Positions 1,533 through 38,098 of a DNA stretch of 39,232 nucleotides are shown here, piece by piece. The DNA lies in IMG/VR virus record IMGVR_UViG_3300014204_000373. The stretch is one strand, 5' to 3'. The translations under genes were made by a program, and so were the position numbers. The stretch is from a virus. The notes beneath the pieces are model-generated. The model ran no database searches. It saw only the letters and a list, made by a program, of their open reading frames with translations, and was not told the DNA's origin. Every line of letters starts with the position of its first letter. Within the stretch, counting starts at the first letter, position 1.

Positions 1533-1553
1533 CCACCTGGGGCTACACCATAA

Positions 1554-2278: not shown

Positions 2279-2679
2279 CCCTTGGGTCCCTTTACTGCCA
2301 GATCCAACGCTTTGGTTAGTGATTGGGTTGCCCCTAGCCCTAGGTCAACTGCCTCAACCAACGATTTGATTGCTCCCATGACACCGGTATGCCCAAAGAA
2401 CGGAGCCACATGGAGTTCTTTGCAGACCTCGCCGAACTCCTGATCTCGTCTACTCAGTAGGGACATGAGAACGTGTTGAGGTAGTACTGTCGAGATCACC
2501 AGCAATGTGTTCTCATTCAAACGGAATCCGAATATCGTGAGCCACTGCTCAATTAGGTCAGGGTGGTTAACCGGGAACGTTCCTCGAAACATAACCCCCT
2601 CAACCCACACCTGAAGGTCTTGGGCCTCTTGGTCGGTAAGTTCTTCGAAAAGTTTGGTACTCTTGTTGATGGTAGCCAT
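2275..2679 (-). CDS. hypothetical protein, first gene after promoter-like element a
   Basis: The ATG at 2677-2679 sits 5 nt downstream of ...TCGTAATAC-TGAGC. Confidence 0.55.
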   Translation of the reverse strand: MATINKSTKLFEELTDQEAQDLQVWVEGVMFRGTFPVNHPDLIEQWLTIFGFRLNENTLLVISTVLPQHVLMSLLSRRDQEFGEVCKELHVAPFFGHTGVMGAIKSLVEAVDLGLGATQSLTKALDLAVKGPKG

Positions 2680-2680
2680 G

Positions 2681-2714
2681 CTCAGTATTACGAATGGGAT
2701 CAGAATTTCAACCT
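2681..2714 (-). promoter_or_regulatory. promoter-like element a (GGTTGAAAT-N15-TCGTAATAC-TGAGC-ATG)
   Basis: Member of the repeated GTTGAGAT...GCGTAATA family. It ends 5 nt before the ATG of 2275..2679. Confidence 0.45.
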
Positions 2715-3887: not shown

Positions 3888-4211
3888 ATGGCAGGGGTTC
3901 CTGACCCCAGGTTTGATCGTGACTTCAATGGGGGTCTCGCGATACGAGTTCAAATGCTTGTGGTCTATGCCTGGCGTCAAGGACTTCTTAACCAAGTAAG
4001 GTTTTTCGGTGCAGTCCACGACTACCGGCAGAATATCATGATCGGAGTTGGGTACTCGACAGTGAACGTCACCCCTTGTTTTGAGCATACCCCGACTAGT
4101 CTAGTACGGTGCTTGAAGTCTGATTTCGAGATGTCCTTGGACGACCTGATAGGGCCAGAGTATCAACCACCTCCGAAACAAACCCGAGCCCAAAGACCCT
4201 GGGTGATATGA
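3888..4211 (+). CDS. hypothetical protein with the C-terminal tag variant ...TRAQRPWVI
   Basis: First ATG after the stop of the 3037..3744 gene. It ends GGTGATATGA, with the stop overlapping the ATG of the next gene. The tag variant is QRPWVI. Confidence 0.4.
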   Translation: MAGVPDPRFDRDFNGGLAIRVQMLVVYAWRQGLLNQVRFFGAVHDYRQNIMIGVGYSTVNVTPCFEHTPTSLVRCLKSDFEMSLDDLIGPEYQPPPKQTRAQRPWVI

Positions 4212-4747
4212 AAGCACTGGCGTTCCTAGTAGTTCTCCTCTACTGCGGGTTGGCACGTGCCGAGTTTCCGGGGTGTGACGTCCACGCGATGGATGGTCAA
4301 ATGCTCGACGAGGTTCTGACCTTTGAAGATCTCCTCTACATCATCACGGAGGAGAACGATCCAAGGTTTGTGCCACTTGGCACAGCCATCACCTACACGA
4401 CTAAGCGGTACAATCATTGCAAAATCAGTTGCTGGGATCTAGCATGGCACAACGCTGAGGTGATGGCGGCTGAGAAGCTTTGGGACAAGGTGACCCTCAC
4501 CACTGGGGAGATTGTCGGCTGGGGTTGCGGGGGAGAAGTTGAGTGCAAAGAGCCAGTTCACGCGCACAACGTCCAGTGCACCGTCGAGATTGGGGACTGC
4601 GAACTCGACGGTTTAGTCGAGGGGAGCCCTTACTTCTTCTTCAAGATCAAGGAAACCAAGTACTTGGAGTGCCTAGGGGACTTGAGCTGCAAGTACGAGG
4701 GCCGGCCGATCACCGATTGCTGCATTATTGTATCCATAGAGTCCTAG
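4208..4747 (+). CDS. secreted Cys-rich protein (N-terminal signal peptide MKALAFLVVLLYCGLARA)
   Basis: Hydrophobic N-terminus with an A-R-A cleavage-like site, then 14 Cys. ATGA coupling to the tagged upstream gene. Confidence 0.55.
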   Translation: MKALAFLVVLLYCGLARAEFPGCDVHAMDGQMLDEVLTFEDLLYIITEENDPRFVPLGTAITYTTKRYNHCKISCWDLAWHNAEVMAAEKLWDKVTLTTGEIVGWGCGGEVECKEPVHAHNVQCTVEIGDCELDGLVEGSPYFFFKIKETKYLECLGDLSCKYEGRPITDCCIIVSIES

Positions 4748-5709
4748 TCTACAGGGATCTTGTCCTGCATCATCAAGTCAACAATATTTTGGGATTCAGT
4801 TTCGGATAGTGGTCTTCCGGATAGAAAATCACCCTCACCAAGCGGCTCTTCTGGTGGGCTTGAATGATGCCGAGTGTGCACAGGGGTTAGTGTAGTTAGA
4901 GGCTTATTAGGGGTAGACTCACTTTTGAGATGTGGGTTGTCACTAACTAGGTGGTAAACCCCACGCTTGCCACTTCTTTGGAATAACTCATTTGAAGACA
5001 GGGTGTACCTAATGTGGACCATTGGGTCATTCGACTCAGGTAGCCAACCTCTAGCGTCCAACAACTCATAAACTTCCCTCGATGTCAAATCCTTGTCGTG
5101 CATGACGATTTGAATAGCTTCAACAAGTTTAGGTGCGTTTGATCTGTCTTTTAACCTGCGCTTCTTCCTTGGGGGTGGGATGGTTTCGGGTGGGTAACTT
5201 CTAACTATTCCAATATCAGTATACTTTTGAGTCAATTGAAGTTCCTGACTAAAAAGTACCGGACCAGGGAAGTAGATCCGACCCACTCCGTAACCCCGCG
5301 TGATGATAACCTCACCCTCTTTGAAACCAGCTTTCAGAATGTTGTGTTTCAGTCCGGCACCAAGTACGCCACCTACAGCTCTAAGATCTACATCTCCAAG
5401 AGCACTGGCCAATCCTTGGCTTTTAATCCCTTCTGGATTGGACTTAATAGTTCTAAGCAGGATCATTTGCTTATCATTCACCAAGGACATCAGTATGTCC
5501 CAAGTCGAGTTAGATTTAGTGACTATGGTACTCTGATGCCTTTCAGCTTTAGGTGGAGCCGGAGCCACTTCGAATTGCTTTGATTGAGGGGGAGAGGGTT
5601 CTAACTCTCCGGCATTAATTACTGCCGACTTGACACCCAACTTACCTGCAGAGCATAGGATACTGATGATCGACTCGGCGTCATCTGACTCGATAGTCAA
5701 TAGGTACAT
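4744..5709 (-). CDS. hypothetical protein; the N-terminal ~35 aa module is paralogous to that of the next gene
   Basis: Real start taken at MYLLTIESDD (ATG 5707-5709, AGGTAAG upstream). The N-terminal module ESDD..S....LC.A..LGV resembles 5766..6722. A Pro/Ser linker follows. Confidence 0.5.
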   Translation of the reverse strand: MYLLTIESDDAESIISILCSAGKLGVKSAVINAGELEPSPPQSKQFEVAPAPPKAERHQSTIVTKSNSTWDILMSLVNDKQMILLRTIKSNPEGIKSQGLASALGDVDLRAVGGVLGAGLKHNILKAGFKEGEVIITRGYGVGRIYFPGPVLFSQELQLTQKYTDIGIVRSYPPETIPPPRKKRRLKDRSNAPKLVEAIQIVMHDKDLTSREVYELLDARGWLPESNDPMVHIRYTLSSNELFQRSGKRGVYHLVSDNPHLKSESTPNKPLTTLTPVHTRHHSSPPEEPLGEGDFLSGRPLSETESQNIVDLMMQDKIPVD

Positions 5710-5765
5710 CTTACCTAGCCTACCAGAACCTCTACTCACGAAAAACCATCATATACGATTGTGTT

Positions 5766-6722
5766 TCAACAATTAGTCAGCAATCCAGGGTATACTCCGG
5801 CGTAGCGAGCTTGAACAGCCAGAACTCCAAGATTATGGGCTAGTACCTTACATAGGATCTCATTAACCTGGGCTACCTCATCCTTGGACTTGACAGCCCC
5901 ACCAAACTTGGTCTTAATTATAGTGAAAGCAGACACTTTGCTCGGCTTTAGACTTAGCCTCGAGCTATTTGTACTCAACTCACTACATAATCTATTCCAC
6001 ATTGATAGAACACTAGATGGGATCTCAGCCTTGTGGGCTCTAGGAGCTCGTACTTTTGGTAGTAGCTCCGGTATTTCAGTTGGGCTTCCAACATACGCTG
6101 AACTGGTTTCGATCGACGAGATCAGATTCGTAGTAACGCCCACTAATGCACTGCAGATGATCCAGCGTTGAGGGGGTTTAGCTCCGTACTCCTTTGGTTT
6201 GGGGAGATATGTAGTCGTACTGAAGCTACTGACACTATGCTCAAATTTAGACTCCATAGGCATCAAAGGAGAAGCCGTCAGAGTGATTAAGCTATCGAGA
6301 ATCGATGCTAGTTCTGATAAACGAAAGTAGTTACTGAGTGAGTTGTAGTGGGGGGCTACATGGATCAATTTAGACTCGCTAATGTCTGAATATGCTCCAC
6401 GTAAGCTCTTGTTGGTATACACCTTGAGTACAGAGGCATAGATCACATCAGATAGAGGTAGCTTCGGACGTCCGTTGGTCTGGATGGGTTGCTCGATATT
6501 ATCACACAAGTACCTCAACAAGTACTCGAAGGTATTTTGACGCGACCTAATCACCTTGCTAGGACTGGTAGAGGGCAGGATCTCTGAGGCCCTAGAAACT
6601 GGAGGACTACTAGGCCCTCTAACCTCGGATATTGTAGCCCTAACCCCTAGCCTATTGGCTTCACATACCAACTGCAGCAGACTTTTCGGGTCACTCGACT
6701 CTAATCTAACAGAGAACTTCAT
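5766..6722 (-). CDS. hypothetical protein, paralog (N-terminal module) of 4744..5709
   Basis: MKFSVRLESSDPKSLLQLVCEANRLGVRA aligns with MYLLTIESDDAESIISILCSAGKLGVKS. Alternative GTG start at 6743. Confidence 0.5.
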   Translation of the reverse strand: MKFSVRLESSDPKSLLQLVCEANRLGVRATISEVRGPSSPPVSRASEILPSTSPSKVIRSRQNTFEYLLRYLCDNIEQPIQTNGRPKLPLSDVIYASVLKVYTNKSLRGAYSDISESKLIHVAPHYNSLSNYFRLSELASILDSLITLTASPLMPMESKFEHSVSSFSTTTYLPKPKEYGAKPPQRWIICSALVGVTTNLISSIETSSAYVGSPTEIPELLPKVRAPRAHKAEIPSSVLSMWNRLCSELSTNSSRLSLKPSKVSAFTIIKTKFGGAVKSKDEVAQVNEILCKVLAHNLGVLAVQARYAGVYPGLLTNC

Positions 6723-6857
6723 GAATTGAGTGATATACTTCACCTAAACTACGGATTAGTCAAGGTATGCCCCTAGTTTATTCGAGGTTCTACTTGATCT
6801 AATGGCCGACTGCATTATCACGTCGACTCATGAGTAGCATTGGTGTAGCCTAGTAGC

Positions 6858-7347: not shown

Positions 7348-7386
7348 TTGTTGAGGTTCTATAGCCTTCATGCGTAATACACGGGC
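7348..7386 (+). promoter_or_regulatory. promoter-like element b (GTTGAGGT-N18-GCGTAATAC)
   Basis: Family member on the plus strand after the 6858..7343 stop. Followed by an ATG (29-aa ORF) and a 10-bp-stem hairpin. Confidence 0.4.
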
Positions 7387-7418
7387 ATGACGAGAATAGC
7401 GGCACTCAACCTACTTAA

Positions 7419-7443
7419 GGGTTGGATCGTAAAGATCCAACCC
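7419..7443. repeat. perfect 10-bp-stem hairpin GGGTTGGATC-gtaaa-GATCCAACCC
   Basis: Read directly. Lies ~35 nt downstream of element b. No U-tract. Confidence 0.5.
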
Positions 7444-7623
7444 TACAAGATAGTCTCGTCGAAGCCCGGAACCTGACAGTCACAACCGGACGCAAGCATG
7501 TTGTTCGAGTAAGTTGTGGGCGCTACTTCGTAGTTCCTCTGTTCGCTCCGGGCAAAGAAGGTTACAAGCACGACGCTGGTTTCACTTCTTTTGGCCAGTT
7601 AGTTGAAGAATCTATGGGGCCCG

Positions 7624-8037
7624 ATGTCAGCAGCGAAATGCCAATACTACGCAACTCCTGATGAGGCTGCTCAAGCAGCGACCAAGAAACTTCGTACCAA
7701 GTACGGTAGTGGACCTCAAGTATTCATCTTCAGGAGCCCGGAGGGCTTCGGGTTCTCGACGACGAAGCCTACCAGGGTAATGAAGCGATCTACCGTTCTC
7801 ATCATCCCCGAGCGCCCAAACTACTTCCGAGAGGCCCTCAAGGCCATCATTGGTCGGTACCCTCCCATACTTGTTCCGCCTTATGGCACAAGTGAGATGG
7901 GGGATGAGGTAATCGATCTGCAGGATTGGTGCTCTGACAATGCTCAACCCAGTTGGGCTACCGGACTCTCAATGATCGAAGCCGCTGAGCTGATAGTTAT
8001 CCAGGCGCTTGATAACGACAACATCAAACGGGTCTAA
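7624..8037 (+). CDS. hypothetical protein
   Basis: ATG at 7624 (MSAAKCQYY...). The alternative overlapping ORF 7422..7661 (TTG start) cannot be excluded. Confidence 0.4.
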   Translation: MSAAKCQYYATPDEAAQAATKKLRTKYGSGPQVFIFRSPEGFGFSTTKPTRVMKRSTVLIIPERPNYFREALKAIIGRYPPILVPPYGTSEMGDEVIDLQDWCSDNAQPSWATGLSMIEAAELIVIQALDNDNIKRV

Positions 8038-19341: not shown

Positions 19342-19518
19342 TCAACCTTCAACAAGGCTCAAGGCCTCAGAGATACTGCCGAACTGGATTTGCAAGGTGA
19401 TCTCGTAGGCAAGCTTCATCGAAACCGGCCGAACCACTTCTCGGAGTGCCGGAAGTGAGAATGACCGGGCTTCTTCAACCGTCCACCCAAGGGCTTTTGC
19501 AATTCGTTCGTGTAGCAT
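19342..19518 (-). CDS. small helical protein (59 aa), first gene after promoter-like element d
   Basis: The ATG at 19516-19518 is 5 nt downstream of CGCGCGTAATAA-GGTCC. The ORF track starts it further upstream. Confidence 0.45.
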   Translation of the reverse strand: MLHERIAKALGWTVEEARSFSLPALREVVRPVSMKLAYEITLQIQFGSISEALSLVEG

Positions 19519-19556
19519 GGACCTTATTACGCGCGAGGTGGGTAGAATCTCAATCA
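19519..19556 (-). promoter_or_regulatory. promoter-like element d (ATTGAGATTCTACCCACCTCGCGCGTAATAA-GGTCC-ATG)
   Basis: One of three near-identical copies (d, f, h). It ends 5 nt before the ATG of 19342..19518. Confidence 0.5.
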
Positions 19557-19882
19557 GTTTCCTTCTTAGTTTCTCCAATAGCTGCCAGGATCTCGGTACA
19601 TTGAGCGTTGAAGGCTTCCAACTTCTTCTTGGCCCGTCGAACTTCTTGCTCGATATCCTGCCTCATGGAGCTCAATGTTTCCTCAATGACGGACGGTAGC
19701 TCGCCAGCATGTTCTACGCTATTGCACCCTTTGGGGTACTGGACAATGGCCACCGCCTTGTTGTCTTTCCACCCAGGGAGGATCTTGAGCTTGAGTCCTT
19801 GGTCACCCCTTCCTTCGTACGTGTAAGAGGACCCATCTCCGGTGAGCACGAGATTACCGACCCTCATTGTATGCTCAGGCAT
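19550..19882 (-). CDS. hypothetical protein
   Basis: AGAGGAAA SD before the ATG at 19880-19882. Confidence 0.5.
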   Translation of the reverse strand: MPEHTMRVGNLVLTGDGSSYTYEGRGDQGLKLKILPGWKDNKAVAIVQYPKGCNSVEHAGELPSVIEETLSSMRQDIEQEVRRAKKKLEAFNAQCTEILAAIGETKKETD

Positions 19883-20480
19883 GGGTTTCCTCTTTCGGTA
19901 GGGCTTCAACGATCTTTACAACCCCTTGCAGGCGATCCGCATTGAGTCCTTGAGTAACCCCTACTAGTTCGACGATCGCCCGTACGCGCGCTTCGGTAAG
20001 CCCCTGGAGGCGTACACTAAAAAGGCACTCAGTCTGTGACATAGGGGTGATTAGGTCTGCGTACTCAGGCAGATCCTCTCGGAGTCGACCAAGGGATGCC
20101 ATGACTTCTCGACGTTTTTGCTCGTTCTCAGCCCGGCGCTCTTGCATCCGTTTGAACCAGCTGTTCTGCCGTAGGGCTTCCTCGAATAGCTCTTGGCCAA
20201 AGTCTTCCAGATCCTCTTGCATGACCACCCCTCGGTAGAGGATCTCATCATCGGGCTCCATTCGAATTGTGTCGAAGGACACTACGAGAACACCCTTGTC
20301 AACCCCTTCAGTGATTGTCATCGCCCGGTATATCTCAGGATCTTCAGTGACCGTGAGGCTGAACCAGTACCAGTTTTGATTCTTCTCAGACTTTATTCCG
20401 GCTCCTTCGAGCTTTGCTTGGAGAGACAGGATGATGTCTTGGGCTCTGGTTTCGGCTTCTGGGCTGCTGTAATGGGTCAT
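19875..20480 (-). CDS. hypothetical protein
   Basis: GAGGAAG SD ~10 nt before the ATG (MTHYSS...). Confidence 0.5.
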   Translation of the reverse strand: MTHYSSPEAETRAQDIILSLQAKLEGAGIKSEKNQNWYWFSLTVTEDPEIYRAMTITEGVDKGVLVVSFDTIRMEPDDEILYRGVVMQEDLEDFGQELFEEALRQNSWFKRMQERRAENEQKRREVMASLGRLREDLPEYADLITPMSQTECLFSVRLQGLTEARVRAIVELVGVTQGLNADRLQGVVKIVEALPKEETHA

Positions 20481-20784
20481 CAGGGTGTTCTTCCTCAGTT
20501 GGTACAATGGGTGCTGGTGGATAGTCTCTGTCTGTACCTCGAGCTATCTGTCCAAAGGTGGGTCGACAAGCAATCTTCTCGCGCCTACACCAGACTTCCT
20601 TCGTCGGTACATCCGATGGGTTTCCACGAGCCGCGCATTGAGGACAACACGCTACCTGCTGACCAGGCTTGCGATCAGAGAGTGCAGTCCACCACGGAGT
20701 GGCCCCTCGACAAAAACAACACACCTCAGACTCTGTATTCTGAGTCAGGTCATCGTCGGGCTCTTTTTGGATGGTGATCGGCAT
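20386..20784 (-). CDS. Cys-rich (CCFCRG...CCPQCAARG) zinc-finger-like protein, first gene after element e
   Basis: ATG 11 nt downstream of GCGTAATAC. The 3' part overlaps the next gene by ~95 nt. Confidence 0.4.
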   Translation of the reverse strand: MPITIQKEPDDDLTQNTESEVCCFCRGATPWWTALSDRKPGQQVACCPQCAARGNPSDVPTKEVWCRREKIACRPTFGQIARGTDRDYPPAPIVPTEEEHPDDPLQQPRSRNQSPRHHPVSPSKARRSRNKV

Positions 20785-20826
20785 GTACTCGTGGAGTATT
20801 ACGCATGAGTAAGTAACTTCTCAAGG
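20785..20826 (-). promoter_or_regulatory. promoter-like element e (CTTGAGAAG-N17-GCGTAATAC, 11 nt to the ATG)
   Basis: Family member upstream of 20386..20784. Confidence 0.4.
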
Positions 20827-22542: not shown

Positions 22543-22953
22543 CTACTTGACCGCAAGCAACGATTGAGATGACCGGGTTCTCAGAGTCGACTCGAGGCTA
22601 CTAACTGCTGAGCGCATTGAGGCGACCGGGCTGATCTTCAATTGGGTTTCAACGCCAACTGCAAGTTGACTTGTTGCCGCTTCAATCTCTTCAATAGTGT
22701 CTGTAATGTTCAACAGATTCTCACCGATCTCAATAACTGCCGCCAGCAAAACTTCTGAGAACTCCTCGAACTGAGGAGTGAACCGTTGGGTTCCATTTAA
22801 CGGGGCCAAAGTGGACTTCAAAACCCCATCTTGAGTAATCTCGAAGTGAGTTACAGATTCGGAAAGTCTGGTCTGGGCGAGAGTCGCTTTTTGAATCAGT
22901 TCCGGGAGTAGCTTGAGTATCTGAGCTTGATTCTGGCTTGTGGTTTGTTTCAT
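22543..22953 (-). CDS. helical hypothetical protein
   Basis: GGGGGA SD 5 nt before the ATG. About 60 nt downstream of promoter-like element f. Confidence 0.5.
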   Translation of the reverse strand: MKQTTSQNQAQILKLLPELIQKATLAQTRLSESVTHFEITQDGVLKSTLAPLNGTQRFTPQFEEFSEVLLAAVIEIGENLLNITDTIEEIEAATSQLAVGVETQLKISPVASMRSAVSSLESTLRTRSSQSLLAVK

Positions 22954-23010
22954 TCTTGTCCCCCTAGTGGGTGCGTATTACCAACCTCGAGAGTATCGAG
23001 GTCTTTGGTC

Positions 23011-23045
23011 TATATTACGCGCGAGGGGTTGTAGAACTCAACAGG
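23011..23045 (-). promoter_or_regulatory. promoter-like element f (GTTGAGTTCTACAACCCCTCGCGCGTAATAT)
   Basis: Near-identical to d and h. About 60 nt upstream of 22543..22953, with a 7-bp hairpin and a GGGGGA SD in between. Confidence 0.45.
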
Positions 23046-33562: not shown

Positions 33563-33909
33563 AGACGATAGGTACTCAACTCTGCGGCGGAGATGAGCGG
33601 AATATGTAACTGTCTCGCCAGCTCAATCTCTCTTCTAACTCCGGAAGATGTTCCCCAGCCCGGAACCAATACTAGGACGTCGCAAGTCCTGAGTATGACT
33701 AGAGCAGCCTCGAGCCAGAAGTCATAGTCCTGGAGGTCAGCAAAGGGGTGCCAATAGACAATCGGACACTGGGGTATCCACCCAGCCTTGATAGCATCCT
33801 CGATAACACGCTTCGCCTTTGAGACGTTGATCTCTGTCTCGGAGATACTACCTCCACTGTAAGCGCCCGAGATGAATGCTTTCCCTTTGATCTTCATGCT
33901 ATTTCTCAA
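33559..33909 (-). CDS. DUF4406-like (nucleoside 2-deoxyribosyltransferase-like fold) protein
   Basis: KAFISGAYSG near the N-terminus and CDVLVLVPGWGTSSGVRREIELA, which match the DUF4406 pattern. Confidence 0.6.
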   Translation of the reverse strand: MRNSMKIKGKAFISGAYSGGSISETEINVSKAKRVIEDAIKAGWIPQCPIVYWHPFADLQDYDFWLEAALVILRTCDVLVLVPGWGTSSGVRREIELARQLHIPLISAAELSTYRL

Positions 33910-34418
33910 TTACTAGGGCCTAGCAACGACTCGAGTTGGTTCTGAACCACCACACCATTTTCAGTAATTGGCATCATGATAAGCAACCGTTGCTTCGTGA
34001 AAACATAGGGTATGAAGTTCTCCAAGGTCGTATCCGCCTTTACTAAATCGGCTTTCGGGTCAGTGTTTACACTACGATGTGACTTAGTGATGTACTCAAT
34101 TGCCATGTCAAGATCTTCCGTACTTGCAAACTGAGTAATTGCCCCCTCAAACTGACATCGAACAAGAGCCCCGCTTTCCGACATCTTGTAGCAACCGAAT
34201 ATCTCAGGATTGGTTGGATAGAACCTCCACTGCGAACGATGCCTCGGTACCTCGAAGGCCCACGGGGTACCGCTCTCACAATGCGAGACGAAGCCCGACT
34301 TCTGAAGGGTCAAGCAGATAGTCTCGGGGGTGACTCTACTGTACCAGCTGAACCCTATGTTCGACAAGCCGATCACAAGAGCTACCTTGGTGAGAATACT
34401 TACGAGGTTCGTGGTCAT
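33906..34418 (-). CDS. signal-anchor/secreted hypothetical protein, first gene after element g
   Basis: The ATG at 34416-34418 is 5 nt downstream of GCGTAATAA-TGTGC. N-terminus MTTNLVSILTKVALVIGLSNIGF. Confidence 0.5.
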   Translation of the reverse strand: MTTNLVSILTKVALVIGLSNIGFSWYSRVTPETICLTLQKSGFVSHCESGTPWAFEVPRHRSQWRFYPTNPEIFGCYKMSESGALVRCQFEGAITQFASTEDLDMAIEYITKSHRSVNTDPKADLVKADTTLENFIPYVFTKQRLLIMMPITENGVVVQNQLESLLGPSN

Positions 34419-34455
34419 GCACATTATTACGCACCACCTCGAAGGATCTCAACAA
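34419..34455 (-). promoter_or_regulatory. promoter-like element g (GTTGAGATCC-N16-GCGTAATAA-TGTGC-ATG)
   Basis: It ends 5 nt before the ATG of 33906..34418. Confidence 0.5.
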
Positions 34456-35684: not shown

Positions 35685-35891
35685 CGTGGTGGAACCATCG
35701 TACTTTTCCCAAGTCTAACTCTACTTGAGCGAGATACCAAGATGTACTACGTCCACAAGAAGAGCGTAGCCGAAATGGCTCATACCCTCGACGTACCAGA
35801 AGAAGCCGTTTCGTACCGGTTGAGCCGCGGTCGTCAAAGACTCCGAGACCTGCAGACTCGCTCACTTAGTCCCCGGGGCCGTTTAGTTTGA
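35685..35891 (+). CDS. small protein with a sigma-70 region-4-like HTH
   Basis: ...LLERDTKMYYVHKKSVAEMAHTLDVPEEAVSYRLSRGRQRLRD matches the ECF/sigma region 4.2 pattern L..L.eR.R.V......S..EIA..L.V..gTV.SRL.RaR..Lr. GTG at 35685 (AAGG SD) or ATG at 35742. The opposite-strand ORF 35653..35865 was rejected. Confidence 0.4.
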   Translation, partial: RGGTIVLFPSLTLLERDTKMYYVHKKSVAEMAHTLDVPEEAVSYRLSRGRQRLRDLQTRSLSPRGRLV

Positions 35892-37495: not shown

Positions 37496-37537
37496 ATTGA
37501 GGTTGAGATCTACCGTACCTCGCGCGTAATAGTAGGT
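37496..37537 (+). promoter_or_regulatory. promoter-like element h (GGTTGAGATCTACCGTACCTCGCGCGTAATAG-TAGGT-ATG)
   Basis: Near-identical to d and f. It ends 5 nt before the ATG of 37538..38098. Confidence 0.5.
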
Positions 37538-38098
37538 ATGACAACGATAAGTCTGAGTGCATCATCAGATTACGGTCAATCTGGACAGTACATTGCGATA
37601 TTGACCGGGAGAGCTCCTAAGGTTCATTTTACTCGGTCATTCGTTGGCTCCAAGTATGGGAAGCGCAACGAGGGGACCAGCTACGAAACTGACGAGGCGG
37701 GTCTCTATGAGTGCTGTGATCATACCCGTAAGGGCAAGGTCAAGCGGTACTACATTGTGCTTGAGTTCAATGGTGAGTTGAAGAGACTCCAAACCGACCT
37801 TGAGGACTCACTACTGATTGCCAAGAGGCTTGAGGGGGGTGAGTCCCTGGCTGACGTGGTCGAACTACTAGTTGAGGACGAGAAAGTCGTCTACCGGATC
37901 AACAGTAAGACCGAGGTAAAGAAGGCTAAGGCCGCCGGTGACATCGACGCGGCTGTTGCAGCCATCGTGTCTGCCCTTCAAGCCCTCCCCACCAACCTTC
38001 AGAAGAAAGCTCTCGCGCAAGCCAAAGAGCGTCTCTTCCCACCAACCCCCAAGACCACTACTGCCGAAGGAGAAACCCATGTTCCAGTGGCTACATAA
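37538..38098 (+). CDS. hypothetical protein, first gene after promoter-like element h
   Basis: The ATG is 5 nt downstream of CGCGCGTAATAG-TAGGT. Confidence 0.5.
   Translation: MTTISLSASSDYGQSGQYIAILTGRAPKVHFTRSFVGSKYGKRNEGTSYETDEAGLYECCDHTRKGKVKRYYIVLEFNGELKRLQTDLEDSLLIAKRLEGGESLADVVELLVEDEKVVYRINSKTEVKKAKAAGDIDAAVAAIVSALQALPTNLQKKALAQAKERLFPPTPKTTTAEGETHVPVAT

Follow-up and report, generated by a model that had tools for sequence, protein, structure and literature searches.

A repeated bipartite promoter-like element set at a fixed distance from start codons in a lineage of uncultivated huge phages

The bipartite promoters of the sigma-70 family include the early promoters of phages T4, T5 and SPO1, which are read by the host. 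Leaderless mRNAs, whose translation requires a 5' AUG, are known for lambda cI transcribed from PRM, for many genes of Actinobacteria and Deinococcus, and in Thermus and mycobacterial phages. For Deinococcus deserti, a share of 47-60% leaderless is reported (PMC4007540). In the jumbo phages AR9, phiKZ and phiR1-37, early promoters show strong conservation and transcription begins 6 nt downstream of them (PMC5312081); in AR9 and phiKZ the untranslated regions (UTRs) measure 26-491 nt and no leaderless transcript was detected (PMC5312081, PMC8244752). Here we describe a repeated bipartite element in a 39,232-bp stretch of viral DNA (IMG/VR record IMGVR_UViG_3300014204_000373; the whole stretch is called the window), which resembles these systems in part and in most copies has an ATG start codon at a fixed distance from its proximal box.

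An original prediction, made from the window sequence alone, had named eight intervals carrying a repeated bipartite element, and this was borne out. All eight hold the element, seven as strong copies and one (copy a) in degenerate form (Table 1). The strong copies have the form TTGAG(A/G/T)-N15/16-GCGTAATA, with 17 or 18 nt between TTGAGA and TAATA. The spacer had been given as 15-18 nt, which is too wide for the strong copies, the value of 15 nt being found only in copy a. The proximal 8-mer GCGTAATA occurs 7 times in the window compared to 0.29 expected occurrences, and the pattern TTGAGN{15,16}GCGTAATA 7 times compared to 0.00 in 100 dinucleotide-preserving shuffles. A weight matrix trained on the other phages of the clade described below, with the window left out, found exactly the seven strong copies (scores 19.6-41.4) and no further ones. 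On 20 shuffled windows the same matrix gave a mean best score of 7.3, and the maximum was never above 18.1. Extending the motif search to related phages, which had been proposed as a check, yielded 84 unique copies in the clade. An Rfam scan of the window gave no family match.

The original prediction had overlooked the defining feature of the element: TAATA is followed at a set distance of 6 nt by a start codon, so that the mRNAs would be leaderless. Within the window, an ATG follows TAATA after 6 nt in copies a, c, d, g and h and after 7 nt in copy b. The string CGTAATA-N6-ATG is present 5 times compared to 0.06 expected, and every instance of TAATA-N6-ATG in the window belongs to the motif. 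Among the 84 clade copies, 56 have an ATG exactly 6 nt after TAATA, while any other offset is found at most four times. At offset 6 the codon is always ATG (56 cases) and never GTG or TTG. A start codon at offset 5-7 is present in 62 of the 84 copies and opens an open reading frame (ORF) of at least 50 codons in 54. Orthologous copies differ in the six intervening bases but place the ATG at an unchanged distance. Downstream of the ATG most substitutions are synonymous, e.g., in the starts MTRIAALN, MTRTAALN and MTRKAALE after copy b and its orthologues, which indicates that translation does begin at that ATG. The predicted position -1 is a pyrimidine in 76 of 84 copies and the predicted position +1 an A in 68, and copies without an ATG still tend to carry a purine at the predicted +1.

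The window has a G+C content of 50.4%, carries no tRNA genes and has no close DNA match among GenBank phages. It corresponds to an entire Joint Genome Institute (JGI) contig, to judge from two of its proteins, for which the longest recorded contig measures 39,232 bp. Relatives sought in IMG/VR via the terminase-like protein were not found; they were obtained through a protein database instead. These relatives share the gene order, with proteins that are 46-85% identical, and are located on contigs of 226, 238, 435 and 443 kb. Because syntenic relatives lie on contigs of 226-443 kb, the window is considered a fragment of an uncultivated huge phage. Related loci were gathered in two ways, by protein look-ups, which are unbiased with respect to the motif, and by a strict 17-base motif scan of IMG/VR. 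In the latter, the multi-hit contigs all came from the clade and the rest were singletons; one 98.5-kb contig had 10 matches. Literature searches on the motif and on leaderless promoters in jumbo phages gave no match, and the literature matches to GCGTAATA were T7-promoter primers only.

The 84 copies, found in about 400 kb of partly overlapping clade sequence, define the consensus G-TTGAGA-TC...CTCG(C/T)G-CGTAATA. Of these, 47 have 17 nt between TTGAGA and TAATA, 35 have 18 nt and two have 15 nt, in agreement with the 17 ± 1 bp of two-element sigma-70 promoters. Several positions outside the search pattern are conserved as well: a G before TTGA (75/84), a T directly after TTGAGA (59/84) and a C at the next position (53/84). 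In the proximal block, conservation extends over C -19 (70/84), T -18 (73/84), a C, G -16 (66/84), C/T and G -14 (77/84), followed by CGTAATA. At each of three positions located 5-7 nt before the first T of TTGAGA, A or T is present in 70-71 of the 84 copies. In the motif-unbiased loci, 35 TTGAG-type sites have no more than two mismatches in the -10 region, and 26 of them carry the 8-mer GCGTAATA unchanged. As a separate observation, the favored -35 context TTGAGATC includes a Dam-type methylation site (GATC) in about half the copies, in the window e.g., at 15878-15881, 34446-34449 and 37506-37509.

A footprint was obtained from seven orthologous site groups (including alignments A2 and A3) of phages whose proteins are only about 50-85% identical. 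Identity was 95% for the -35 box and 97% for the -10 8-mer, compared to 53% for the spacer, 49% for the six bases after TAATA and 58% for the first 24 coding bases. In these alignments both boxes are under purifying selection while the spacer drifts. Selection acts on the boxes and not on the whole repeat, which speaks for recognition of two distinct DNA elements by their sequence rather than for gene conversion of a mobile repeat. The promoter reading of the original prediction thus received strong support from the comparative data, namely the conserved boxes with a drifting spacer, the 17/18-nt spacing, the AT-rich upstream flank and a purine, with a pyrimidine before it, at the seventh nucleotide after TAATA.

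Very probably, the element acts as a promoter from which transcription starts on the ATG. G-TTGAGA-T(C) would be the -35 element, preceded by an AT-rich UP-like stretch, and CTCG(C/T)G-CGTAATA, 17 or 18 nt downstream of the -35 hexamer, would be an extended -10 element. The reader would be a bacterial-type multisubunit RNA polymerase with a sigma-70-family factor. We infer that transcription would start at the purine 7 nt after TAATA, which in about two thirds of the copies is the A of the ATG start codon. Since a -10 element puts the start about 6-8 nt downstream, transcripts would begin at or within 1-2 bases of the AUG. With no 5' UTR the mRNA would be leaderless and have no room for a Shine-Dalgarno (SD) sequence, and ribosomes would engage the 5' AUG directly. 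A minority of copies would give short or structured leaders instead, such as copies e and f of the window (6 nt, and 53 nt with a hairpin, respectively).

Several observations weigh against this reading. A start codon at offset 5-7 is lacking in 22 of the 84 copies, and the 15-nt spacer of copy a departs from the 17/18-nt spacing. The loci L015-L056 came from the strict motif scan, so that copy density is biased in them; the ATG offset is not, the search pattern having ended at TAATA. Sigma-70 normally needs a T at position -7 of the -10 element. No such T is present in the element, and the canonical register from -12 to -7 would read GTAATA. A generic TTGACA/TATAAT scan of the window gave no enrichment over shuffles; it registered five of the eight sites, two of them with the -10 hexamer in a different register. 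Moreover, no cognate sigma factor was identified in the sampled phage DNA. When 62 window proteins (scan batches of 10, 10 and 52) and 94 related-locus proteins, representing less than a quarter of any genome, were scanned against Pfam, neither an RNA polymerase subunit nor a complete sigma factor was revealed. The scans gave only a 49-amino-acid (aa) Sigma70_r4 fragment in the window and one weak protein with a GerE/r4-type helix-turn-helix in the related loci. The 49-aa ORF (35742-35891, + strand) matches Sigma70_r4 with 28.5 bits and r4_2 with 27.2 bits, above the Pfam thresholds. Its frame is open upstream to 35685 without a start codon. The match covers the profile only from position 15 on, and residues resembling region 4.1 are encoded ahead of the ATG, so that the ORF looks N-terminally truncated. 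This ORF is absent from the syntenic regions of the relatives, and its best database match is a 91-aa stand-alone region-4 protein (70% identity); for these reasons it was set aside as incidental and not taken as the factor of the motif.

The copies are embedded in densely coding DNA, as 89% of the window is coding. A co-directional ORF ends at most 150 nt upstream of the element or inside it in 61 of the 84 clade copies. The upstream stop codon falls within the element in 19 of the 84; it overlaps the -35 box in 10 of these and coincides with the TAA of TAATA in 5. Back-to-back divergent pairs of copies are present in two related loci (L042 and L055), and copy c of the window sits at a divergent gene pair. 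All eight window copies point to the adjacent downstream gene, as the original prediction had stated. Its further claims on placement were too strict. Copies b, d, e, f and g are located between co-directional genes, so that most copies break the rule of a position before the first gene of a block, and in copy d TTGAGA overlaps the TGA stop codon of the upstream gene (19550-19909), so that the position is not strictly intergenic. A terminator scan of the window was not enriched over shuffles and uninformative. In loci not selected by the motif, copy density is about 1-2.5 per 10 kb, and at this density a 440-kb genome would hold roughly 50-100 such units. The spread of copies among small co-directional genes probably reflects many independent, early-like transcription units.

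Some of these properties could also be expected if the element were read by a phage-encoded polymerase that does not use sigma-70, either a multisubunit enzyme of the phiKZ/AR9 type or a single-subunit one, with the rigid 13-nt proximal block as the recognition element. The near invariance of this block, CTCGYGCGTAATA, the inferred start fixed 6 nt downstream as in the early promoters of AR9, phiKZ and phiR1-37 (PMC5312081), and the occurrence in huge phages with relatives on contigs of 226-443 kb are all in line with such an enzyme. A second conserved box at sigma-like 17/18-nt spacing with an AT-rich flank upstream is not. To our knowledge, promoters of virion RNA polymerases (vRNAPs) and T7-type promoters are single contiguous blocks. 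The presence of a -35 box, and no RNA polymerase match in Pfam for the sampled loci (a minority of each genome), set the element apart from the phiKZ/AR9 vRNAP promoters; the two blocks, the variable spacer, the unconserved N6 and start region and the lack of a polymerase domain among the scanned proteins set it apart from T7-type promoters. In addition, AR9 and phiKZ transcripts are not leaderless, and full-consensus copies of the element are present in a bacterial metagenome-assembled genome (MAG), as described below. Taken together, a polymerase of this kind is improbable.

The fixed distance to the ATG, the stop codons located inside the element and the position of most copies between co-directional, potentially co-transcribed genes might suggest that the element is no promoter at all but a regulator-binding site, or a translation signal within longer transcripts (A/U-rich non-SD initiation at TAATA-N6-ATG, or termination-reinitiation). 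It is, however, strictly directional and without dyad symmetry, and its TTGAGA box is as conserved as the proximal box and placed at promoter-like spacing, which a translation signal would not require. Copies also stand at divergent gene pairs, and the 22 copies off any start codon keep both boxes and the purine at the predicted +1, which makes a role of this kind very improbable. Even less can be said for copies that mark the boundaries of mobile or shuffled cassettes and serve as recombination substrates, comparable to the promoter-stem-loop repeats of T4-type phages, and that are kept alike by gene conversion. Copies d, f and h are very similar over their full length, the flanked genes are small and differ among related phages, and one MAG copy precedes an integrase gene. 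On the other hand, only the two boxes are conserved across orthologues and paralogues and the spacer is not, a pattern contrary to the one expected if whole repeats underwent gene conversion, and the exact register with the start codon has no explanation under such a model. We regard it as barely credible, and a promoter starting on the ATG as the best account of the element.

With respect to the factor that reads such a promoter, the -10 element is informative. Read as TAATAN, the hexamer always has A at position 2, and its sixth position is C in 40, G in 21, T in 13 and A in 10 of the 84 copies. It thus does not follow the TAnnnT hexamer of sigma-70, which lowers the case for membership in the housekeeping class but not that for a promoter mechanism. 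It is plausible that the element differs from the housekeeping consensus, as it lacks a conserved final T, has a GC-rich 5' extension and a rigid -10 element; the rigidity of the 8-mer is more typical of dedicated factors. The original prediction of a non-housekeeping consensus is therefore plausible, in view of the unenriched generic scan and the rigid 8-mer, whereas its attribution to a phage-specific or alternative sigma factor was not demonstrated: the search of the sampled phage DNA revealed no sigma factor or RNA polymerase gene, and two full-consensus copies are present in a bacterial MAG. Huge phages encoding their own sigma-70 are on record (PMC7162821). We consider a host-encoded sigma factor to be close to an even prospect, a sigma factor encoded by the phage or by a mobile element to be possible although rather doubtful, and a factor other than these to be unlikely.

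The strict pattern was also scanned over 185,579 GTDB species genomes. This gave 115 single matches compared to a rough chance estimate of about 280, and because the total is below this estimate it carries no signal. Three of the 115 matches also carry the block CTC(A/G)(C/T)G, which was not part of the search, compared to about 0.1 expected, and the same three have an ATG at +6. An excess of Acidobacteriota among the matches was rejected as chance, since none of them has the extra conserved block or the ATG. The first of the three is on a 5-kb contig (L084) assigned to an Omnitrophota MAG. This contig encodes proteins with 31-63% identity to proteins of the clade and therefore represents a mis-binned phage fragment. 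The other two are located in the MAG "uncultured delta proteobacterium MFD01476.bin.3.99" (L130, 4901-4928, - strand; L134, 1342-1369, - strand) on contigs of 571 kb and 821 kb, with matrix scores of 35-36, equal to the best sites of the phage. These two full-consensus copies show that the motif is not confined to phage genomes. One of them precedes a frameshifted tyrosine-recombinase (integrase) gene in a region that also carries a HicB-like antitoxin, assigned by sequence reading and 52% identical to clade proteins. The other precedes a 122-aa gene near a divergently oriented protein with a borderline Sigma70_r2 match (24.6 bits). This sigma-like protein has no homologue in IMG/VR or the sampled clade loci; a single homologue (85% identity) is present in the JGI metagenome collection. 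It is encoded on a contig of 2.3 kb, and a related phage occurs in the same sample. Both copies stand in contexts resembling mobile elements and are therefore compatible with a chromosomal as well as with an element-borne factor. The deltaproteobacterial lineage of MFD01476.bin.3.99 is a candidate host. A dedicated sigma factor or sigma-appropriation system might be common to the clade and deltaproteobacterial integrative elements and drive an orthogonal, AUG-start programme independent of housekeeping promoters and SD sequences, but this idea is speculative and on the unlikely side. If it were true, dozens of phage genes would be free of host housekeeping promoters and SD-dependent initiation.

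Table 1. Copies of the element in the window, with predicted boxes and the start codons that follow them.
Copy	Strand	Core	Core with ATG	-35 hexamer	Spacer (nt)	-10 8-mer	Between TAATA and ATG	ATG	Downstream gene or ORF
a (degenerate)	-	2686-2711	2677..2711	TTGAAA 2711-2706	15	TCGTAATA; TAATA 2690-2686	N6 (ctgagc)	2679-2677	start of ORF 2275-2679
b	+	7351-7379	7351..7389	TTGAGG 7351-7356	18	GCGTAATA, end 7379	N7	7387-7389	ORF of 29 codons here, 77-91 aa in relatives
c	-	15857-15884	15848..15884	TTGAGA 15884-15879	17	GCGTAATA, end 15857	N6	15850-15848	start of HD-domain phosphohydrolase gene 15326-15850
d	-	19525-19553	19516..19553	TTGAGA 19553-19548	18	GCGTAATA, end 19525	N6	19518-19516	start of 58-aa ORF 19342-19518
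e	-	20797-20824	20782..20824	TTGAGA 20824-20819	17	GCGTAATA, end 20797	predicted +1 = G 20790; 6-nt leader	20784-20782	gene 20386-20784
f	-	23013-23041	22951..23041	TTGAGT 23041-23036	18	GCGTAATA, end 23013	predicted +1 = A 23006; 53-nt leader	22953-22951	gene 22543-22953
g	-	34425-34452	34416..34452	TTGAGA 34452-34447	17	GCGTAATA, end 34425	N6 (atgtgc)	34418-34416	second ATG of ORF 33906-34424
h	+	37503-37531	37503..37540	TTGAGA 37503-37508	18	GCGTAATA, end 37531	N6	37538-37540	start of gene 37538-38098

The individual copies of the window differ in some respects. The orthologue of copy a in the related locus L007 is a full-consensus site with a 17-nt spacer and an ATG at +6. The ORF after copy b (7387-7476, + strand) has 29 codons in the window and in locus L001 and encodes 77-91 aa in loci L004 and L007, and ORF 7422-7661 carries on from it in another frame; a frameshift is probable, reflecting either a pseudogene or an assembly error. 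For copy g we propose that the second ATG is the true start of its ORF. Orthologues of copy e have leaders of 6 or 13 nt. In the leader after copy f, a hairpin (23002-22984, - strand; ACCTCGA-TACTC-TCGAGGT) is located only a few nucleotides downstream of the predicted start, and an SD-like GGGGGA comes after it; the stem is conserved in loci L009 and L036, and the loop differs in L036. In loci L012, L013 and L014, orthologues of copy h are located directly downstream of the Rnl2 RNA ligase gene. The genes served by the copies are mostly small and uncharacterized and vary among related phages. Exceptions include the HD phosphohydrolase gene and, further along the unit that begins at copy d, genes for a GmrSD_N-like protein and an NAD kinase.

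Apart from these, the recognizable proteins of the window include a terminase-large-subunit-like protein, a 927-aa protein with a major-vault-protein shoulder domain, a tail-fibre-like protein, an Rnl2 RNA ligase, an ADP-ribosylglycohydrolase and a 5'-nucleotidase. Eight window proteins of 83-168 aa share the C-terminal tail (S/T)RYER-x-(W/P/L)-V-I. Their genes end at 4211 (+ strand) and at 1554, 12000, 12444, 23395, 23643, 25407 and 25853 (- strand), and the one ending at 4211 carries the tail only in part (AQRPWVI). Several pairs of these proteins are alike only over the final 10-20 residues, and the stop codon of the genes often overlaps the next start (e.g., GTGATATG). Relatives retain the tail as well, upstream of their terminase-like gene. 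The tail could serve in targeting or cargo loading; the vault-shoulder protein is encoded in the same window. Two adjacent genes (4744-5739 and 5766-6743, - strand) encode proteins of ~330 aa each with a similar N-terminal domain (ESDDAESIISILCSAGKLGV, ESSDPKSLLQLVCEANRLGV) and no Pfam match.

A further short sequence, GGTGTA(G/C/A/T), is located between directly before and 11 nt upstream of about ten start codons in the window. Sites include 1544-1549 (- strand) at the terminase-like gene, 6842 (+), 13466 (-), 13503 (+), 24635 (-), 26861 (-) and 31604 (+). GGTGTA occurs 30 times in the window compared to 16.4 ± 3.8 expected, and it is kept upstream of the terminase-like gene in four phages in which the surroundings differ. 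It could be a second signal, either a promoter or a non-SD initiation element. The over-represented word GAGTGTA was considered as a second promoter and rejected, its source being repeats of the clustered regularly interspaced short palindromic repeats (CRISPR) type in related loci. Such arrays are present in two related phage contigs (L013, 16332-17230; L051, 8245-9478), each with at least 13 copies of the 36-nt repeat GCCTCAGTGGTTCATTGAGTGTATGGGGATTGGAGC and spacers of ~37 nt. They adjoin a protein of ~655 aa with no Pfam family on record and no PDB sequence match, which is possibly a compact phage-borne effector. Related phages also carry an IS605 OrfB/TnpB-type gene and a DDE transposase gene (L008, 12901-14121, - strand; L014, 16642-17865, + strand).

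The TAATA-N6-ATG rule fixes the true start codons and the transcription-unit boundaries of dozens of genes of uncultivated huge phages. Gene callers disagree on such starts: for the gene after copy a, two assemblies record a product of either 105 or 134 aa, and no record gives the gene after copy h its ATG start at 37538. As a probe for host tracing, the motif picked out the mis-binned phage fragment and the two deltaproteobacterial MAG copies. If a start on the ATG is true, a large phage lineage would rely on leaderless translation for the first gene of many units. Should the cognate factor be found, the element would offer a compact and well-defined orthogonal promoter.

In comparison with known systems, the element shares with sigma-70 promoters two blocks 17-18 bp apart, a -35 hexamer that matches TTGACA at five of six positions, an AT-rich -10 core in which TAATA has A as its second base, a run rich in A and T before the -35 box, a pyrimidine at the predicted -1 and a purine at the predicted +1, and the occurrence of many copies ahead of small genes in a large phage genome. 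Unlike housekeeping promoters, it has a 13-nt -10 block that is GC-rich in its 5' half and does not end the hexamer with a conserved T, and the perfect 8-mer in about three quarters of sites makes it far more rigid.

Promoters of alternative sigma factors follow other consensus sequences, namely TAAA-N15-GCCGATAA for sigma-28, CTTGAAA-N13-15-CCCCATNT for sigma-32, "AAC"-N16-17-"CGT" for sigma factors of the extracytoplasmic function (ECF) group and CGTTAGA-N18-GATATT for SPO1 gp33/34. The element is similar to these in its high information content, the GC-rich 5' extension of the -10 element, a "CGT" within the -10 element as in ECF promoters and a TTGA(A/G)A -35 box as in sigma-32 promoters. 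It nevertheless does not match the consensus sequences known for sigma-28, sigma-32, ECF, T4 late and SPO1 middle/late promoters; the ECF hallmark AAC is absent from its -35 box (G-TTGAGA-T), as is the sigma-28 -35 box TAAA from the element. With the vRNAP promoters of jumbo phages it has in common the huge-phage context, a rigid element, a fixed 6-nt distance to the start and tens of copies per genome, but those promoters are single AT-rich blocks without a -35 box and with long leaders, whereas here a -35 box is combined with a proximal block that is half GC-rich.

As in known leaderless genes, the start codon is located where the -10 element would place +1, no room would be left for an SD sequence and the codon at offset 6 is never GTG or TTG. 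In contrast to them, the arrangement is tied to one rigid promoter motif and used for the first gene of each unit only. The leaderless transcripts are predicted here from the sequence, and several internal genes have G-rich SD-like upstream sequences (GGGGGA, AAGGAAGG). In summary, the architecture is that of a sigma-70-family promoter, and its consequence, a leaderless mRNA, is already known in phages and bacteria; the arrangement is not mechanistically surprising, and it is clean, conserved and useful for annotation and host tracing.

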